A DNA stretch of 5,507 nt from a virus. Its lineage: Duplodnaviria; Heunggongvirae; Uroviricota; Caudoviricetes. Numbering within the stretch: position 1 is the stretch's first letter; every line of letters begins with the position of its first letter. Below are positions 1 to 5,507 of the stretch, piece by piece. The notes under the pieces are model-generated. The model did not search any database. It saw nothing but the letters and a program-made list of their open reading frames with translations, and was not told the origin of the DNA. The translations under genes and the position numbers were made by a program. The stretch covers positions 1 to 5,507 of IMG/VR virus record IMGVR_UViG_2698536369_000006; one strand, given 5' to 3'.

Positions 1-36
1 ACTTAAAAAACTGCGAAACAGCAGAAGTGAGGTTGC

Positions 37-708
37 ATGAATATCTACGAAAGAATTGATGGCAGCAAATACCGAAATATTTGGGTAGCTGGCGATCTGC
101 ACGGATGCTACACGAACCTGATGAAAAAACTGGAGACGATAGGATTCGACACCAAAAAAGACCTGCTTATCTCGGTTGGCGATTTGGTTGATCGTGGTGC
201 AGAGAACGTTGAATGCCTGGAATTAATCACATTCCCCTGGTTCAGAGCTGTACGTGGAAACCATGAGCAAATGATGATTGATGGCTTATCAGAGCGTGGA
301 AACGTCAATCACTGGCTGTTTAATGGCGGTGGCTGGTTCTTTAATCTCGATTACGACAAAGAAATTCTGGCTAAAGCTCTTGCCCATAAAGCAGATGAAC
401 TTCCGTTAATCATTGAACTGGTGAGCAAAGGTAAAAAATATGTCATCTGCCACGCCGATTATCCTTGTGACGAATACGAGTTTGGAAAGCCAGTTGATCA
501 TCAGCAGGTAATTTGGAACCGCGAACGAATCAGCAACTCACAAGACGGGATCGTAAAAGAAATCAAAGGAGCGGACACATTCATCTTTGGTCATACGCCA
601 GCAGTGAAACCACTCAAGTTTGCCAACCAGATGTATATAGATACCGGCGCAGCGTTCTGCGGAAACCTCACATTGATTCAGGTACAGGGAGAAGGCGCGT
701 GGGCATAA
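37..708 (+). CDS. Serine/threonine protein phosphatase, lambda nin-region PPase type (ORF221/NinI-like; calcineurin-like metallophosphoesterase)
   Basis: 223-aa ORF with ATG at 37 preceded by GTGAGG Shine-Dalgarno 4-5 nt upstream. Contains metallophosphatase signatures GDLHG, GDLVDRG and GNHE. Sequence closely matches what I recall of the lambda phosphatase (…[23 protein letters not shown]…). Stop TAA at 706-708. Confidence 0.9.
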
Positions 709-1187
709 GAGAACTAAACCTCACCAAAGAACAGCACGAGTGGCTGAATGGCTGGCTTGAACTGTGGGGCGCATGGGTTTATTCAGGTCGTCTGGAAAAG
801 CGCATGAGCAGCGTAATAGCTAAGTTCATGGAGAGCGTAGAGCCGGGAAGAGTTATGACAAGGCCAATGTGTAATGATGATGATGGAATGTTGATTTCTC
901 AGGTCGTCGATTCCGTCATGTACATTGACAAGAAAGCCTTCGGCATCCTCCTCAGCTACTACGCTCATGGTTCTTCCAGGCACGCCATTGCATCTTACTA
1001 TCATCGCGTCGCAAGACCTCGCAAGATGTTATGCCGGGGCGGCGGGCGCATTCAAAAACCATCGCTCGCAACCTGTCGACGGGAAGTTGACGAAATCCTT
1101 AATGCCTCGTTGTTTATGATTTACCCGGTTCTGGATAGTGCGTTTAAAAACCGGAAACGTGTAGAGAAAATTAAACATGTAGCATAG
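699..1187 (+). CDS. Q: Late-gene antiterminator Q (phage 21 / 933W-type Q family)
   Basis: ORF in frame 3 ending at 1187. Likely start is GTG at 699 (GGAG/AAGG upstream), overlapping the phosphatase 3' end by 10 nt. Motifs LELWGAWV and [12 protein letters not shown] resemble the conserved N-terminal region of Q21/Q933W-type antiterminators. Position (after nin phosphatase, before lysis genes) is canonical. Start codon is uncertain; the first in-frame ATG (~804) would remove the conserved motif. Confidence 0.75.
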
Positions 1188-1193
1188 AACGTG

Positions 1194-1222
1194 TTGACAT
1201 CATTGAGCAAATGAGCAACACT
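1194..1222 (+). promoter_or_regulatory. Candidate late promoter (pR'-like) immediately downstream of Q
   Basis: Perfect -35 TTGACA at 1194-1199. Only weak -10 candidates follow at 17-19 bp spacing (AACACT / CACTAT). Position right after the Q stop matches where pR'/qut sits in lambdoid phages. The -10 is poor, so this is tentative. Confidence 0.3.
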
Positions 1223-1231
1223 ATTGGCATA

Positions 1232-1274
1232 AGCTGCCGTTAGTGACTCTTAAGTTGCAACGGTGGCTTTTTTT
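1232..1274 (+). terminator. Terminator-like hairpin followed by T7 run (possible tR'-like element or tRNA leader structure)
   Basis: 10-bp stem 1232-1241 (AGCTGCCGTT) pairing with 1259-1268 (AACGGTGGCT), including two G-U pairs. Loop is 17 nt, followed directly by TTTTTTT (1268-1274). The large loop and wobble pairs make it atypical. Confidence 0.3.
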
Positions 1275-1278
1275 ATTT

Positions 1279-1353
1279 GGGTCAGTCGTATAAAGGTCAT
1301 TACGGAAGGCTGTTAACCTTCTTATCGTGGTTCGAGTCCACGCTGTCCCGCCA
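1279..1353 (+). tRNA. tRNA-Asn(GUU)-like, atypical
   Basis: Manual cloverleaf: acceptor 1279-1285 GGGTCAG with 1343-1349 CTGTCCC (one T-T mismatch at pair 4-69). D-arm is GTAT/TTAC type. Anticodon stem GAAGG/CCTTC with loop CTGTTAA gives anticodon GTT at 1312-1314. T-arm CGTGG-TTCGAGT-CCACG. Discriminator G and encoded CCA at 1351-1353. Only 1 nt between acceptor and D-stem by my fold, so identity and functionality are uncertain. Confidence 0.5.
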
Positions 1354-1358
1354 AACAT

Positions 1359-1434
<76 letters not shown>

Positions 1435-1437
1435 TAT

Positions 1438-1512
<75 letters not shown>

Positions 1513-1518
1513 GTTAGA

Positions 1519-1564
1519 GTCTTTCAGTCTGCGATGATGGGAAATCCCGGAGTGACTGAAAGAC
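1519..1564. repeat. Perfect 11-bp inverted repeat (GTCTTTCAGTC / GACTGAAAGAC) with 24-nt spacer containing a GGG-AAAT-CCC mini-palindrome
   Basis: Arms 1519-1529 and 1554-1564 are exact reverse complements. Located 7 nt after the tRNA-Gly 3' end. No U-run follows. Confidence 0.7.
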
Positions 1565-1571
1565 GTTTAAG

Positions 1572-1644
1572 TTATGAATGATCGCTTTTTTTTGCAAAAT
1601 TGCTGTGCAGAAATACTAACCTTCGGGCAGGCGATCATTCATAA
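1572..1644. repeat. Perfect 14-bp inverted repeat (TTATGAATGATCGC / GCGATCATTCATAA) separated by 45 nt
   Basis: Arms 1572-1585 and 1631-1644 are exact reverse complements. Spacer begins with T8 (1586-1593) and contains a CC-TTCG-GG mini-hairpin. Confidence 0.7.
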
Positions 1645-1683
1645 GCACTCTGCTTTTATTCCGATTAACTGTGGGTGGTTTGT

Positions 1684-1712
1684 TGGATAGAGTGCTTTCC
1701 TTACTGTATATA
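1684..1712 (+). promoter_or_regulatory. Candidate sigma70 promoter (alternative late promoter / pR'-like candidate)
   Basis: -35 TTGGAT (1684-1689), 17-bp spacer, -10 TATATA (1707-1712) preceded by TG at 1705-1706. The predicted start lies just before the 1720-1745 terminator, an arrangement reminiscent of pR' followed by tR'. Confidence 0.3.
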
Positions 1713-1719
1713 TTGTTTC

Positions 1720-1745
1720 GCCCGCTTTTGCGGGCTTTTCTTTTC
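1720..1745 (+). terminator. Rho-independent terminator upstream of the holin gene (tR'-like)
   Basis: GC-rich hairpin GCCCGC-TTTT-GCGGGC (1720-1735) followed by TTTTCTTTTC (1736-1745). Confidence 0.65.
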
Positions 1746-1804
1746 AAATCCCTTTCATTTCTCAGTGTAAAACTACGCCATCCGTTATTTGCGGAGGTGA
1801 GGCT

Positions 1805-2020
1805 ATGAAATCCATGGACAAAATTTCAACGGGCATTGCCTACGGCACCTCCGCAGGCAGTGCTGGCTACTGGTTTTTACAGTGGCTTGATCAGGTCAGT
1901 CCGTCACAGTGGGCTGCGATTGGTGTACTGGGGAGTCTGGTTCTGGGCTTCCTGACTTATCTGACAAATCTGTACTTCAAAATCAGAGAAGACAAGCGTA
2001 AGGCTGCACGGGGAGAGTAA
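1805..2020 (+). CDS. S: Class II holin / pinholin, phage 21 S21-type with dual-start motif
   Basis: 71-aa ORF beginning MKSMDKIS (Met1 and Met4 give the S21-71/S21-68 dual start). Two hydrophobic segments ([16 protein letters not shown] and [17 protein letters not shown]) and a charged C-terminus. Strong Shine-Dalgarno GGAGGTGAGG at 1793-1802. Matches my recollection of S21 and E. coli EssD/EssQ. Confidence 0.9.
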
Positions 2021-2024
2021 TTCA

Positions 2025-2369
2025 ATGACTCAAAACTATGAACTGATTGTGAAAGGGATCCGCAATTTTGAGAATAAAGTTACGGTAACTTTAGCGTTAC
2101 GGGACAAAAAACGCTTTGACGGTGAAATTTTTGACCTGGACATCTCGCTGGACCGTGTTGAAGGTGCCGCGCTGGAGTTTTATGAGGCAGCAGCCAGAAG
2201 GAGCATCAGACAGGTCTTCCTGGATGTTGCTGCCGGGTTATGTGAAGGGGATGAGCTGTCGCCGGAAAAGCGCCCCATAATTTTAGAGGCGCAGAATGTG
2301 TGGATAACCTACAAAGGAAAGCTACCGGGAAGAATTACTGGTTCTCTGAAGACTCCGCCGAAATGGTAA
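2025..2369 (+). CDS. Hypothetical protein inserted between holin and endolysin (possibly the DUF1327/YdfR-like lysis-cassette ORF family)
   Basis: 114-aa ORF with ATG at 2025, 4 nt after the holin stop. GGGGAGAG Shine-Dalgarno 7-8 nt upstream. No transmembrane segment. The family guess is from position (between an S21-like holin and a SAR endolysin, as in Qin essQ-ydfR-rrrQ), not from recognised sequence. Confidence 0.6.
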   Translation: MTQNYELIVKGIRNFENKVTVTLALRDKKRFDGEIFDLDISLDRVEGAALEFYEAAARRSIRQVFLDVAAGLCEGDELSPEKRPIILEAQNVWITYKGKLPGRITGSLKTPPKW

Positions 2370-2607
2370 TTTCACCAGCATATTTTTCTTCCAGTAATAC
2401 CGCCAGCCACTTGAAAGAATTTTGTTGTTGCTGGGACCATTTGGGGTTGAGTGATTCAAGCTGGAGCGATGCCAGTGTTGGTTGCATTTGTTCCTTGGGA
2501 ATTGAGAATGCCAGATATGAAAATGCGACAGTAAGGGCATTTACATCATCCCGAAGCCTGGAAATGCAGTCGAGCAACTCCTGTAGAGAAATGGTGCTAT
2601 TGTCCAT
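2335..2607 (-). CDS. Hypothetical small acidic protein (90 aa), antisense to the late operon; no family recognised
   Basis: Minus-strand ORF with ATG at 2607-2605 and an excellent Shine-Dalgarno (AGAGAGGA, 6 nt spacer). Protein-like composition (MDNSTISLQELLDCISRLRDDVNALTVAF…), clearly better than the other frames here. Overlaps the 3' end of 2025..2369 by 35 bp. The upstream TTG at 2613 is less likely as the start. Confidence 0.5.
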   Translation of the reverse strand: MDNSTISLQELLDCISRLRDDVNALTVAFSYLAFSIPKEQMQPTLASLQLESLNPKWSQQQQNSFKWLAVLLEEKYAGEITISAESSENQ

Positions 2608-2621
2608 AAACAATCCTCTCT

Positions 2622-2652
2622 ATTGTATTTAACTATTCCTTGCCTGATTCAA
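2622..2652 (-). promoter_or_regulatory. Candidate promoter for the minus-strand gene 2335..2607
   Basis: On the minus strand: -35 TTGAAT (plus 2647-2652), 19-bp spacer, -10 TACAAT (plus 2622-2627). The SD-ATG follows within ~20 nt. The spacer is long, so this is tentative. Confidence 0.25.
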
Positions 2653-2712
2653 CAGGCCGGGACAGATAAACATATCCAGGGTTCAGAAACCGATAAATCC
2701 TGATAAATATCC

Positions 2713-3246
2713 ATGAGCGCAAAAATCAAATACGGCCTGTCAGCTGCTGTTCTGGCGCTGATTGCTGCAGGCGCGTCTGCTCCTCAAATACTTGACCAGT
2801 TTCTGGATGAAAAAGAGGGTAACCACACTACGGCATACCGCGATGGTTCCGGTATATGGACCATCTGTCGTGGTGCCACAATGGTGGATGGTAAGCCCGT
2901 CATACCGGGAATGAAGCTGTCGAAGGAAAAATGCGACCAGGTTAACGCTATTGAACGTGATAAGGCGCTGGCATGGGTGGAGCGCAATATTAAAGTACCA
3001 CTGACCGAACCACAGAAAGCGGGTATAGCGTCATTCTGTCCCTATAACATTGGCCCCGGTAAGTGTTTCCCGTCGACGTTTTATAAGCGGCTGAATGCCG
3101 GTGATCGTAAGGGTGCATGCGAGGCGATTCGCTGGTGGATAAAAGATGGTGGGCGCGATTGCCGCATACGTTCAAATAACTGCTATGGACAGGTTATTCG
3201 TCGTGACCAGGAAAGCGCATTAGCCTGTTGGGGGATAGATCAGTGA
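2713..3246 (+). CDS. R: SAR endolysin (T4-lysozyme-like muramidase, glycoside hydrolase family 24; RrrD/RrrQ-type)
   Basis: 177-aa ORF. N-terminal weakly hydrophobic Gly/Ala-rich segment ([16 protein letters not shown]) is typical of a signal-anchor-release domain. Catalytic E-x8-D-x-T-like region ([23 protein letters not shown]). Near-identical to my recollection of E. coli DLP12 RrrD. No obvious Shine-Dalgarno upstream of the ATG. Confidence 0.9.
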
Positions 3247-3680
3247 GCAGAGTCGCAGCGATTATTTATACTCTGGTTATCTGCACCATCGTCTGCCTGT
3301 CGTGGGCGGTCAATCATTACCGTGATAACGCCATCGCCTACAAAGAGCAGCGCGATAAAGCCACATCCATCATCGCTGATATGCAGAAGCGGCAACGTGA
3401 TGTAGCAGAACTTGACGCCAGATACACAAAGGAGCTTGCTGATGCTAATGCGACTATCGAAAGTCTCCGTGCTGATGTTTCTGCTGGGCGTAAGCGCCTG
3501 CAAGTCTCCGCCACCTGTGCAAAGTCAACGACCGGAGCCAGCAGCATGGGCGATGGAGAAAGCCCAGGACTTACAGCAGATGCTGAACTCAATTATTACC
3601 GTCTCCGAGGTGGAATCGACAAGATAACCGCGCAGGTTAACTACCTGCAGGAATACATCAGGACGCAGTGCTTAAAATAA
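3243..3680 (+). CDS. Rz: Spanin inner-membrane subunit Rz (i-spanin)
   Basis: Start GTG at 3243 overlaps the endolysin stop (GTGA). N-terminus (M)[30 protein letters not shown] parallels lambda Rz ([31 protein letters not shown]). Has an N-terminal TM segment and a coiled-coil periplasmic domain. GGGGGA Shine-Dalgarno upstream. Confidence 0.85.
3442..3627 (+). CDS. Rz1: Spanin outer-membrane lipoprotein Rz1 (o-spanin), embedded in the +1 frame of Rz
   Basis: ORF fully inside Rz in another frame. ATG at 3442 with AAGGAG Shine-Dalgarno 8 nt upstream. Signal peptide with lipobox (LLGVSAC) followed by a Pro-rich mature region ([13 protein letters not shown]). An alternative start is the ATG at 3448. 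Confidence 0.75.
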
Positions 3681-3715
3681 TTTTAATTTCACTGAAATTT
3701 AACAAGTGACTTTCA

Positions 3716-3747
3716 GGAAAATGCCTCGCAGATGCGGGGCATTTTTG
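3716..3747. terminator. Bidirectional Rho-independent terminator downstream of Rz
   Basis: Stem ATGCCTCGC (3721-3729) pairs with GCGGGGCAT (3734-3742), with one G-U and loop AGAT. Flanked by an A-run upstream (GAAAA) and a T-run downstream (TTTT). Confidence 0.55.
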
Positions 3748-3898
3748 TACCGGTATTTCACCGCGCACCGCAGCGCACAATAAACACCGAACCTGACCCT
3801 TTGGAATGGGCCTTTGAGGATACCAGTTAGTGCTGGCGAGCCTCGGTGGGCTGGTTTCCTGTGCGGCAAAGGTTCATTTCAAAGAAGCAGGCAACGCC

Positions 3899-4447
3899 AT
3901 GAATGAATTAATTGCGAATCATGACTTCGACTTTCGCCAGTTAGTTACCGCAGCAGAAGGTCAACCGGTAACTGACACCTTCCAGATTGCCAGGGCATTT
4001 GGTAAACGCCATCAGCATGTGATTAGGGCTATTAAATGTTTGAGATGTTCTGAGGAATTCTCGACAACCCATTTTTGGGCCGTCGAGAAAATCAATGACT
4101 TAGGGATTTTTGACAAGAAACAGATTTACTACCGCATGGACTTTAGTGGCTTCGTTATGCTGGTTATGGGATTTAACGGGGCAAAAGCCGATGCTGTTAA
4201 AGAAGCCTATATCAATGCGTTTAACTGGATGTCAGCAGAACTCCGTAAGTACAGCGAAAGTTATGAAGCAGAACGTAACGCCGTAATGCTGGAGTACATG
4301 AAAGAGAAGGATGTCGCCAGCATGTCAGGCCGTTTGCTCAATCGCTGGGGGAGAACGAAAAAACCTCAATTGCTTGCAAAGCTGGAACGTCTGGAGAGAC
4401 AGGGACAGTTTTTATTACCGGGATTCGATAAAGGTATTCAAGCCTGA
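3899..4447 (+). CDS. Rha-family phage regulatory protein
   Basis: 182 aa from ATG 3899 (MNELI…). The ORF is open from GTG 3830, which has a GAGGA Shine-Dalgarno 9 nt upstream, so the start is ambiguous. Motifs typical of the Rha N-terminal domain as I recall it: TDTFQIARAFGKRHQHVIRAI and FVMLVMGFNGAKADAVKEAYINAFNWM. Confidence 0.65.
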   Translation: MNELIANHDFDFRQLVTAAEGQPVTDTFQIARAFGKRHQHVIRAIKCLRCSEEFSTTHFWAVEKINDLGIFDKKQIYYRMDFSGFVMLVMGFNGAKADAVKEAYINAFNWMSAELRKYSESYEAERNAVMLEYMKEKDVASMSGRLLNRWGRTKKPQLLAKLERLERQGQFLLPGFDKGIQA

Positions 4448-4472
4448 CACATTATGCGCTGTATCGTCGCCG

Positions 4473-4537
4473 TATTCCCGCATTAACCATGACCGTAGCC
4501 CGACGGGGAATTCCTTCTGCGTGAGTGTGCGGGAATA
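4473..4537. repeat. 10-bp perfect inverted repeat (TATTCCCGCA / TGCGGGAATA) flanking a 45-bp spacer containing GGGGAATTCC
   Basis: Arms at 4473-4482 and 4528-4537 are exact reverse complements. Lies in the convergent intergenic region between the Rha-like gene and the minus-strand small gene. No adjacent U-run on either strand. Confidence 0.6.
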
Positions 4538-4634
4538 ATCAAAAACGATGCACACCGGGTTTTACTGTGCTGACAGACGCAGGGTTACCCTCATAGTCGC
4601 TTTTCCGGTGCGATGGTGGAAGAAACCGGGATGT

Positions 4635-4829
4635 TCATCCATCATCACTTTGGATTGATGTATATGCTCTCTTTTCTGACGTTAGTCTCCGACGGCAGGC
4701 TTCAATGACCCAGGCTGAGAAATTCCCGGACCCTTTTTGCTCAAGAGCGATGTTAATTTGTTCAATCATTTGGTTAGGAAAGCGGATGTTGCGGGTTGTT
4801 GTTCTGCGGGTTCTGTTCTTCGTTGACAT
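4635..4829 (-). CDS. Small ribbon-helix-helix-like protein, YlcI/DUF3950-like
   Basis: 64-aa minus-strand ORF with ATG at 4829-4827. Sequence MSTKNRTRRTTTRNIRFPNQMIEQINIALEQKGSGNFSAWVIEACRRRL has a basic N-terminus, a beta-strand-like RNIRFP and two helices, consistent with an RHH DNA-binding fold. Matches my recollection of DLP12 YlcI, which sits next to the Nu1 homolog nohD. Weak Shine-Dalgarno. Confidence 0.6.
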   Translation of the reverse strand: MSTKNRTRRTTTRNIRFPNQMIEQINIALEQKGSGNFSAWVIEACRRRLTSEKRAYTSIQSDDG

Positions 4830-5027
4830 GAGGTTGCCCCGTATTCAGTGTCGCTGATTTGTATTGTCTGAAGTTGTTTTTACGTTAAGTTGATGCAGAT
4901 CAATTAATACGATACCTGCGTCATAATTGATTATTTGACGTGGTTTGATGGCCTCCACGCACGTTGTGATATGTAGATGATAATCATTATCACTTTACGG
5001 GTCCTTTCCGGTGATCCGACAGGTTAC

Positions 5028-5039
5028 GGGGCGGCGACC
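5028..5039. other. cosN cohesive-end sequence (5'-GGGCGGCGACCT-3', lambda type)
   Basis: Exact lambda 12-nt left cohesive end at 5028-5039. It is preceded by the lambda right-end sequence (…CCGGTGATCCGACAGGTTACG, ending 5027), so cos is in the joined (circular or prophage-internal) form. Confidence 0.85.
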
Positions 5040-5080
5040 TCGCGGGTTTTCGCTATTTATGAAAATTTTCCGGTTTAAGG

Positions 5081-5196
5081 CATTTCCGTTCTTCTTCGTC
5101 GTAACTTAATGTTTTTATTTAAAATACCCCCTGAAAAGAAAGGAAACGACAGGTGCTGAAAACGAGCTTTTGGGCCTCTGTCGTTTCCTTTCTCTG
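5081..5196. promoter_or_regulatory. cosB: terminase small-subunit binding sites R3, R2, R1 with AT-rich IHF-site region
   Basis: R3 (5081-5098) CATTTCCGTTCTTCTTCG. R2 (5135-5148), inverted, AAAGAAAGGAAACG. R1 (5182-5196) CGTTTCCTTTCTCTG. An AT-rich segment at 5102-5125 is consistent with IHF site I1. Arrangement matches lambda cosB. Confidence 0.75.
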
Positions 5197-5217
5197 TTTT
5201 TGGCCGTGGAATGAACA

Positions 5218-5507
5218 ATGGAAGTCAACAAAAAGCAGCTGGCTGACATTTTCGGTGCGAGTATCCGTACCATTCAGAACTGGCAGGAACAGGGAATGCC
5301 CGTTCTGCGAGGCGGTGGCAAGGGTAATGAGGTGCTTTATGACTCTGCCGCCGTTATAAGATGGTATGCCGAAAGGGATGCTGAAATTGAGAACGAAAAG
5401 CTGCGCCGGGAAGTTGAAGAACTGCGGCAGGCCAGCGAGACAGATCTCCAGCCAGGGACTATTGAGTACGAACGCCATCGACTTACGCGTGCGCAGGCCG
5501 ACGCACA
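5218..5507 (+). CDS. nu1: Terminase small subunit Nu1 (5' partial; continues beyond the window end)
   Basis: ATG at 5218 in frame 1 with no stop before the window end, so it is absent from the ORF track. Translation [46 protein letters not shown]… matches lambda Nu1 as I recall it, including the winged-HTH region. Lies immediately downstream of cosB. Confidence 0.9.

Follow-up and report, generated by a model that had tools for sequence, protein, structure and literature searches.

The region at positions 1513-1804 of the viral sequence IMGVR_UViG_2698536369_000006 (IMG/VR, positions 1 to 5,507 of the record; this whole stretch of 5,507 nucleotides (nt) is referred to as the window) lies between a tRNA-Gly gene and the holin gene at the right end of a lambda-like prophage, and its + strand folds into three consecutive hairpins (H1, H2 and H3) which are followed by a predicted intrinsic terminator. 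Judged from sequence comparison, all three hairpins are selected for RNA structure and kept by compensatory changes, and H3 is under extra sequence constraint on its G/U-rich 3′ strand. The element is coupled either to the 3′-end of tRNA-Gly or to the promoter-proximal terminator tR′, and it seems to represent a family of phage leader RNA which has not been described so far.

Two perfect inverted repeats had been pointed out in the region by a previous reading of the letters alone (the sequence-only reading), and both were recovered exactly as described: 11-nt arms at 1519-1529 and 1554-1564, shortly after the end of tRNA-Gly at 1512, and 14-nt arms at 1572-1585 and 1631-1644 with a 45-nt spacer beginning with T8. 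A further perfect 9-nt inverted repeat (1643-1651 with 1689-1697), overlooked at that time, was identified. The palindromes are far beyond chance: when 1513-1804 was shuffled 1000 times with its dinucleotides preserved, the longest perfect repeat was on average 6.3 nt, a length of 11 nt was reached in 2/1000 and of 14 nt in 0/1000 shuffles, and three repeats of at least 9 nt together (14, 11 and 9 nt observed in 292 nt) were produced by none (0/1000). The + strand fold of the region had a free energy of -99.3 kcal/mol (z = -5.9).

H1 (1514-1570, + strand) consists of an 11-bp stem (1519-1529 with 1554-1564), two more pairs and an apical GGG/CCC mini-hairpin, with conserved bulge sequences UGCGAUGAUGGG and CCGGAGUGAC. 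From an alignment of 27 variants, 17 consensus pairs were predicted for H1, five of which showed compensatory change. H2 (1572-1644, + strand) has a 15-bp outer helix around two small hairpins, i.e. a three-way junction, and the apical segment UUGCAAAAUUGCUGUG at 1592-1607; five pairs of its helix 1 had compensatory change and 98% of the cells were paired. H3 (1643-1697, + strand) abuts H2, A1643-A1644 being common to both, and is composed of a co-varying outer stem of 8-9 bp, an internal loop, and inner stems of 5 bp and 3-4 bp. Within H3 alone (20 variants) 96% of the cells were paired and the outer stem had four pairs that co-vary; when further copies were included, this stem was found in at least six complementary versions (GCACUCUG/UAGAGUGC, GCAUCUCG/UGAGGUGC, GCACUCCG/UGGAGUGC, GCACAUUG/CAGUGUGC, GCACAUUA/UAGUGUGC and GCGCACCA/UGGUGUGC).

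The most conserved piece of the element is the G/U-rich 3′ strand of H3, GGGUGGUUUGUUGGAU (1673-1688, + strand), which was nearly invariant, with only three variants among about 55 unique sequences picked through the H2 motif. Since these sequences were chosen via H2, the conservation of the H3 strand is not a selection artefact. Its pairing partners, in turn, vary by A/G and C/U changes.

For H2 and H3 together, structural conservation was assessed in a plain MAFFT alignment of 36 diverse sequences. The consensus had 41 pairs, and 98.0% of the cells were standard-paired, against 35-51% when the 3′ partners were slid by 1-3 columns. Eleven pairs had changed on both sides, and the observed covariation score was reached in 0/500 shuffles. 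Of the 1440 standard-paired cells 176 were G-U, and the same pairs were standard in 98.0% of cells on the + strand vs 86.7% on the - strand. Since the G-U pairs fit the + strand RNA only, the selected object is an RNA in late-gene direction, not a DNA palindrome. The suggestion of the sequence-only reading that the region is an RNA element instead of spacer DNA thereby gains support from the compensatory changes and the + strand G-U pairs; the free divergence of the arms among homologues, which would have spoken against it, was not seen, as the arms co-vary. Protein-binding DNA operators, named as an alternative in the same reading, are unlikely, because these G-U cells pair only in the + strand RNA.

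The 292-nt region was present at 95-100% identity in 530 of 5426 complete Escherichia coli genomes, all copies being chromosomal and none annotated. It was also found in four E. coli phages besides HK639, and the matches in the phage collection (six records) represented five distinct phages. The copy of HK639 was 76% identical and located between Q and the lysis genes, after tRNA-Asn and a 3′ remnant of tRNA-Gly, and it is followed by an annotated terminator of unrelated sequence. Pattern scans and then profile searches of viral contigs resulted in 104 copies in 79 unique contexts, and a scan of one genome per species revealed the element in Phytobacter, Enterobacter hormaechei, E. coli, Shigella flexneri, Yokenella and Citrobacter sedlakii. 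Wherever its context was examined, the element was downstream of the Q gene and upstream of the lysis cassette, with Q genes of at least three families and unrelated holin/endolysin cassettes.

At loci with a tRNA detected directly upstream, this was nearly always Gly(UCC) or its remnant, and at one locus ARAGORN called it Glu. The conserved H1 stem begins about 6 nt past the tRNA 3′-end. Some loci were without H1, and in these H2 came straight after tRNA-Gly, so that the distance from the tRNA end to the start of the H2 model was 57-58 nt with H1 and 0-7 nt without it; other loci had H1 and H2 and then directly a terminator. At the loci L007 and L099, H3 was replaced or hit by an insertion sequence (IS). 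The insertion in the viral contig L099 (about 9640-9760) is of the IS3 family, with an orfA product starting MSGKRYPEEFKIEAVKQ, and it breaks H3 and leaves H2 intact.

Copies of H3 on its own were found in another lambdoid clade, in eleven viral contigs and without exception on the strand of the late genes. They are located about 15-20 nt past the unit of late promoter pR′ and terminator tR′ or behind a moron open reading frame (ORF), and in one case behind Rz. At the two pR′-tR′ loci examined, the stand-alone H3 was 25-45 nt before the first late ORF. The contigs L130, L165 and L222-L224, from a second lambdoid clade, carry a lambda-type Q (product starting MNAQQLEYVRIQLR), a pR′-like promoter (TTGCAAAAyCCGACACTTTATGCCATATTT) and tR′, followed by the stand-alone H3 within about 20 nt, and in these the H3 stem is extended to 15-17 bp.

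Such coming and going of modules, with H1 absent, H3 replaced or IS-hit (L007, L099), or H3 present alone, would also be expected if the hairpins were non-adaptive or selfish DNA, i.e. functionless relics or mosaic-boundary linkers which hitch-hike with the tRNA-Gly module. The tight link to tRNA-Gly and the rarity in isolated phages (six records, five phages) point in the same direction. However, over six genera and with sequences diverged by about 25%, the stems have been kept via compensatory and G-U exchanges, and linkers serving recombination only would not co-vary, which makes this explanation quite improbable.

The predicted intrinsic terminator (1720-1745, + strand) has the form GCCCGC-UUUU-GCGGGC followed by UUUUCUUUUC. 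Its stem at 1720-1735 contains six G-C pairs and a 4-nt loop, then TTTTCTTTTC (-13.7 kcal/mol, z = -5.0), and the strong terminator seen here by the sequence-only reading is thus upheld as a predicted structure, with its all-G/C 6-bp stem and TTTTCTTTTC. By a strict test, a terminator was present at most 110 nt past H3 in 48 of the 79 unique contexts, and its sequence differed between clades. HK639 carries an annotated terminator at the equivalent place, and phage 21, which is without the element, still has a long hairpin and T-run between its last tRNA and S21. Taking phage 21, HK639 and the terminators of other clades together, several of these phages therefore have a further terminator ahead of their lysis genes. 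The hairpin of phage 21, GCCGTAGC...GCTGCGGC with its T-run (L001, 1786-1860), is unannotated and located between tRNA-Thr and S21; it is probably a second terminator in the same place as that at 1720-1745.

The terminator is altered in many E. coli prophages, its 3′ arm stepping from GCGGGC to GCGGGT, GCGGTT and GCGTTT (L038, L013, L069 and others). Along this stepwise G/C-to-T series, at the equivalent of window positions 1730-1741, the stem is reduced from six to three pairs and the U-run becomes longer, which could reflect either decay where prophages are defective or a tuning of read-through. Control of the 1720 terminator in the manner of a riboswitch was considered and rejected: the terminators differ wholly in sequence and the H3 3′ strand is invariant, which leaves no way for a conserved antiterminator pairing to form.

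The late promoter, the Q-utilisation site and tR′ are, by their match to annotated features, upstream of the tRNAs at 1194-1278. The stretch 1185-1282 was identical in 97/98 positions to the region of phage 21 (OL657228) that has been studied experimentally; the phage 21 record has annotations, backed by literature references, for the -35 and -10 of pR′, for the Q21-binding element and the start site, and for the pause element and terminator. When mapped by position onto the + strand of the window, the -35 of pR′ (TTGACA) is at 1194-1199, the Q21-binding element at 1202-1217, the start site of the late transcript near 1229, the sigma-dependent pause element at 1230-1236, and the tR′ hairpin with its T7 run at 1231-1278 (-20.2 kcal/mol, z = -4.5). 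None of these Q-utilisation features (late promoter, Q-binding element, pause element, first terminator) was found within 1513-1804, where pR′/qut/tR′ had been supposed.

Three tRNA genes follow on the + strand, tRNA-Asn(GUU) at 1279-1353, tRNA-Thr(UGU) at 1359-1434 and tRNA-Gly(UCC) at 1438-1512, called by ARAGORN and the Rfam tRNA model (55-59 bits with the latter) and separated by spacers of 3-5 nt. The gap between the T-run of tR′ and tRNA-Asn is 3 nt, and the cluster is therefore without room for a promoter of its own. Consequently, the tRNAs and the hairpins can be transcribed only by polymerases which get past tR′, be it through leak in the lysogen or as Q-modified polymerase after induction.

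A sigma70-like promoter running into the terminator had also been proposed (1684-1712). The promoter-like site (1683-1712, + strand) comprises TTGGAT at 1683-1688, thus beginning at 1683 and not 1684, 18 nt of spacing, and TATATA at 1707-1712, and it was judged fortuitous. The putative -35 has a 3/6 match to TTGACA and lies inside the invariant H3 3′ strand GGGUGGUUUGUUGGAU, the site was not called by a consensus promoter scan, and the -10 is lost even in near-identical relatives (TGTAGATCC, CAGTCGATT), being TAGATC or CGATTC, and is absent in the HK639 type. A conserved promoter within H3 and its linker, or at the TTGCAA of H2, was rejected as well, as no conserved -10 was found.

Taken together, the DNA-level explanations for the region, i.e. 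pR′/qut/tR′, a promoter-terminator pair or protein-bound operator palindromes, draw on the perfect palindromes, on the TTGGAT...TATATA pair and on the terminator, all of which are present. Yet pR′, the Q-binding element and tR′ are at 1194-1278, the promoter is uncalled and unconserved and would, starting at the foot of the terminator, produce an RNA of about 25 nt, and the G-U pairs favour RNA over duplex DNA symmetry. Readings of this kind are therefore very improbable.

The non-coding nature of the region, in turn, was confirmed. Across 52 variants no conserved in-frame ORF was found, as lengths and products differed widely; the T-run inside H2 ranged from 5 to 9 nt among variants, causing frameshifts, and in-frame stops occurred in close relatives. 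Three overlapping ORFs were thus rejected as genes due to lack of conservation. One of them, which continues through the terminator and has a stop overlapping the S21 start codon, is cut by a stop codon in close relatives. Another, annotated as a 43-amino-acid minus-strand “hypothetical protein” over H3 and the terminator in two phage records (L002, 2751-2882, and vB_EcoM-606R7), is most likely a mis-annotation, the ORF being unconserved.

The role that we favour for the region, tentatively and as a candidate somewhat short of probable, is that of a structured untranslated leader of the Q-dependent late transcript, in which H1, H2 and H3 would be a cis-acting module for processing and stability, joined by the second terminator. 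RNase P and RNase E would excise the tRNAs and cut the late RNA just after tRNA-Gly, at about 1513. The first hairpin, i.e. H1, or H2 in loci without H1, a few nt past the tRNA 3′-end, would mark this cut and cap the new 5′-monophosphate end of the downstream late mRNA, shielding it from 5′-end-dependent RNase E, and a compact stable RNA domain would be left after tRNA excision. A hairpin near a 5′-monophosphate end is a known way to blunt 5′-end-dependent RNase E attack and scanning. In phages with a stand-alone H3, immediately downstream of tR′ or behind a moron gene, this hairpin would take over the same task. The terminator at 1720-1745 would stop unmodified polymerases which have leaked through tR′, keeping holin and endolysin silent in the lysogen, and Q-modified polymerase would read through it.

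Several points weigh against this leader role. The processing and stabilising function is one that we infer from anatomy; the terminator is weakened in many E. coli prophages and absent in some contexts, and is thus not strictly coupled to the hairpins; the stand-alone H3 of L160 is located after Rz, far from any 5′-end; and the compensatory changes mostly separate a few clades, which corresponds to a modest number of independent events. Moreover, the near-invariant GGGUGGUUUGUUGG strand is not needed by a pure stabiliser, and hints at a specific protein or RNA partner. Because this G/U-rich strand is unexplained by a stability module, two rivals, a trans-acting small RNA (sRNA) and a nascent-RNA signal, stay alive.

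In the former case, an RNA of about 230 nt, from the 3′ cut at tRNA-Gly to 1745, or a processed piece of H3 plus terminator, would accumulate like the trailer of a tRNA operon, and the invariant strand would pair with C/A-rich host or phage targets (CCAACAAACCACCC-like) or act as a sponge for a host sRNA, probably with Hfq or ProQ. A Rho-independent terminator with U-tail at the end, an A/U-rich linker before it, and conservation of the G/U-rich strand beyond the needs of pairing are in line with such an sRNA, and tRNA-trailer sRNAs such as 3′ETS-leuZ are known. Among the homologues, though, the terminator differs, decays or is missing and is not conserved as a unit with the body, several H3-only copies precede an ORF instead of a terminator, and the conserved strand is base-paired, not single-stranded. 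A site complementary to the G/U-rich strand was not found in the window.

Prophage sRNAs encoded between Q and the lysis genes include AgvB and AsxR (PMC4104026), and the Pas sRNAs PasA, PasC and PasD derive from the zone downstream of pR′ (PMC8550237; bioRxiv 10.64898/2026.05.13.724894), so that the neighbourhood is one which houses sRNAs. Like these and like STnc100 and Esr41, the element is in the Q-to-lysis zone and terminator-ended; AsxR, PasA and others, however, are antisense or convergent to the late genes, whereas the element is on the sense strand and larger. The probe and seed sequences of the Pas sRNAs were absent from the region (PasB and PasC compared by probe sequence only), and the H3 model found nothing in the stretch of the E2348/69 PP2 prophage with PasA and PasD2; identity with a Pas sRNA was rejected on these two comparisons.

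No Rfam 15 family matched within 1513-1804 when the whole window was searched at E-values up to 1, and the region alone at E-values up to 10 gave only chance-level matches to the terminator stem. The library includes tRNA, AgvB, AsxR, STnc100, Esr41, IsrK, RtT and riboswitches, and the missing match to its sRNA families likewise speaks against a trans-acting sRNA, which we consider rather unlikely. In a full-text search of the searchable literature, the conserved 16-mers were found in no paper, in either orientation, as DNA or RNA. Visual likenesses to the seed region of GcvB, to the GGA sites of CsrA and to boxA, Chi and RfaH ops were set aside as too short or unconserved.

The second rival is a nascent-RNA element which would act on the polymerase or recruit an elongation factor, like HK022 put or nut, and alter pausing or termination at the following terminators. 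It is consistent with two abutting stem-loop domains placed after the promoter-proximal terminator and before more terminators, of which HK639 has three more downstream, with the position of H3 immediately after tR′ in several phages, and with the H3 core string CUAACC(G)GGGUG, which also occurs in the boxB hairpins of phage 21. A constitutive antiterminator ahead of a conserved terminator would, however, defeat that terminator, and the element looks redundant when Q already gives a terminator-resistant polymerase.

A known parallel is the put RNA of HK022 and HK639, likewise two adjacent stem-loops upstream of terminators in a phage transcript, and HK639 has both put and the element. The put antiterminator RNA is about 70 nt and follows the early promoters, whereas the element is 126-130 nt and belongs to the late operon, already equipped with Q (PMC9378689 for put). 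The H2+H3 covariance model had no match at the putL-like RNA of HK639, even with filters off, and homology to put was rejected, as size and location also differ. A further RNA of HK639, annotated as “M3-like RNA” after cII (L219 7911-7970, i.e. HK639 37910-37969), was noted besides the putL-like RNA, and with the element HK639 therefore carries at least three separate non-coding RNA elements.

As to boxB, CAAC/GUUG-type flanking stems accompany the common string, but in the nut sites of phage 21 CUAACC is the loop of a 5-bp hairpin after boxA in the early operon, whereas in H3 it is paired, with GGUU inserted, no boxA and no boxB-type loop, in the late operon. The likeness is kept as a lead only, and a put- or nut-like function for the element is, on the whole, unlikely.

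Comparable in part are the pR′-tR′ leader RNAs (lambda 6S RNA, StxS in Stx phages and the unit of phage 21), which are also short structured late-leader RNAs, constitutive and ended by an intrinsic terminator that Q overrides. Unlike them, the element is downstream of pR′-tR′ and the tRNAs, is without promoter and Q-binding element, and has no sequence in common with them. Stable RNAs co-transcribed with tRNA genes are known, such as 3′ETS-leuZ and RtT of E. coli, the latter being an Rfam family, and the species 1 and 2 RNAs of phage T4. By analogy with these, the element would be a structured non-tRNA RNA directly after the last tRNA and released by tRNA processing; in contrast to them, H3 is also found without any tRNA, and no sequence or model similarity was detected. 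ARAGORN and the Rfam tRNA model called no tRNA or pseudo-tRNA in 1513-1804, and H1 was rejected as a decayed tRNA half, its best local alignment to the three tRNAs being matched by at least 18% of shuffles. A small RNA reported in a 2026 study to be located 48 bp upstream of P22 gene 13 (PMC13397905) is analogous in place only, and when the phage collection was searched with the 292-nt region, no record from Salmonella or of P22-like type was among the matches.

More speculatively, H3, whose core UAACC-N1-3-GGGUGGUUUGUUGG is part of a co-varying stem, might alone or together with H2 represent a novel type of nascent-RNA signal in the late operons of lambdoid phages. By binding a host factor or RNA polymerase directly behind tR′, it might alter what becomes of read-through transcripts, for instance through antipausing or antitermination that does not require Q, or by tagging leaked transcripts for degradation. 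Alternatively, it might be a self-processing or RNase P-guiding RNA which frees the last tRNA from the late mRNA. To these proposals we would give little weight.

The remaining genes of the window were assigned by Pfam scan, which together with the tRNA calls identified it as a prophage right end: a NinI-type phosphatase (37-708), the Q antiterminator (699-1187), the P21-type holin S (1805-2020), and then a DUF1327/YdfR-like gene, lysozyme, Rz, Rha, a DUF3950 gene on the minus strand, cos and Nu1. At the S21 holin, the Shine-Dalgarno region and codons of the gene itself are paired by a perfect inverted repeat of 10 nt, TGCGGAGGTG at 1790-1799 and CACCTCCGCA at 1846-1855; a connection with the dual-start control that is annotated for phage 21 (S21-71/S21-68) is probable. 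In the 340-nt gap of the lysis cassette between the DUF1327 and lysozyme genes, a 92-amino-acid minus-strand ORF (2335-2613) without Pfam match is possibly a moron. The lambda-type cos region is at about 5029-5200, with GGGCGGCGACCT at 5029-5040 and, immediately ahead of Nu1, a long inverted repeat (5134-5196); this repeat produced an Rfam match to mir-578, which is spurious.

The leader of the late operon separates a constitutive promoter from the holin and endolysin genes, and thereby decides on the survival of the lysogen. Earlier work on this zone was concerned with Q, pR′ and tR′, and later with Stx and a few sRNAs. The element described here, which appears to belong with the structured RNAs of phage operon leaders and tRNA clusters, a known kind, is a widespread, unannotated and co-varying RNA: about 10% of the complete E. 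coli genomes carry it, and its range covers at least six enterobacterial genera. It is physically coupled to the tRNA genes of phages and does not depend on the type of Q or of lysis genes. Its covariance models are usable for annotation, and as it is present in the cultivable phages HK639, phi467 and vB_EcoS-689R5 and in strain 042, its function is directly testable. If the element controls tRNA release, late-mRNA stability or leak-through, it would add a post-transcriptional layer to prophage silencing and to the timing of lysis.

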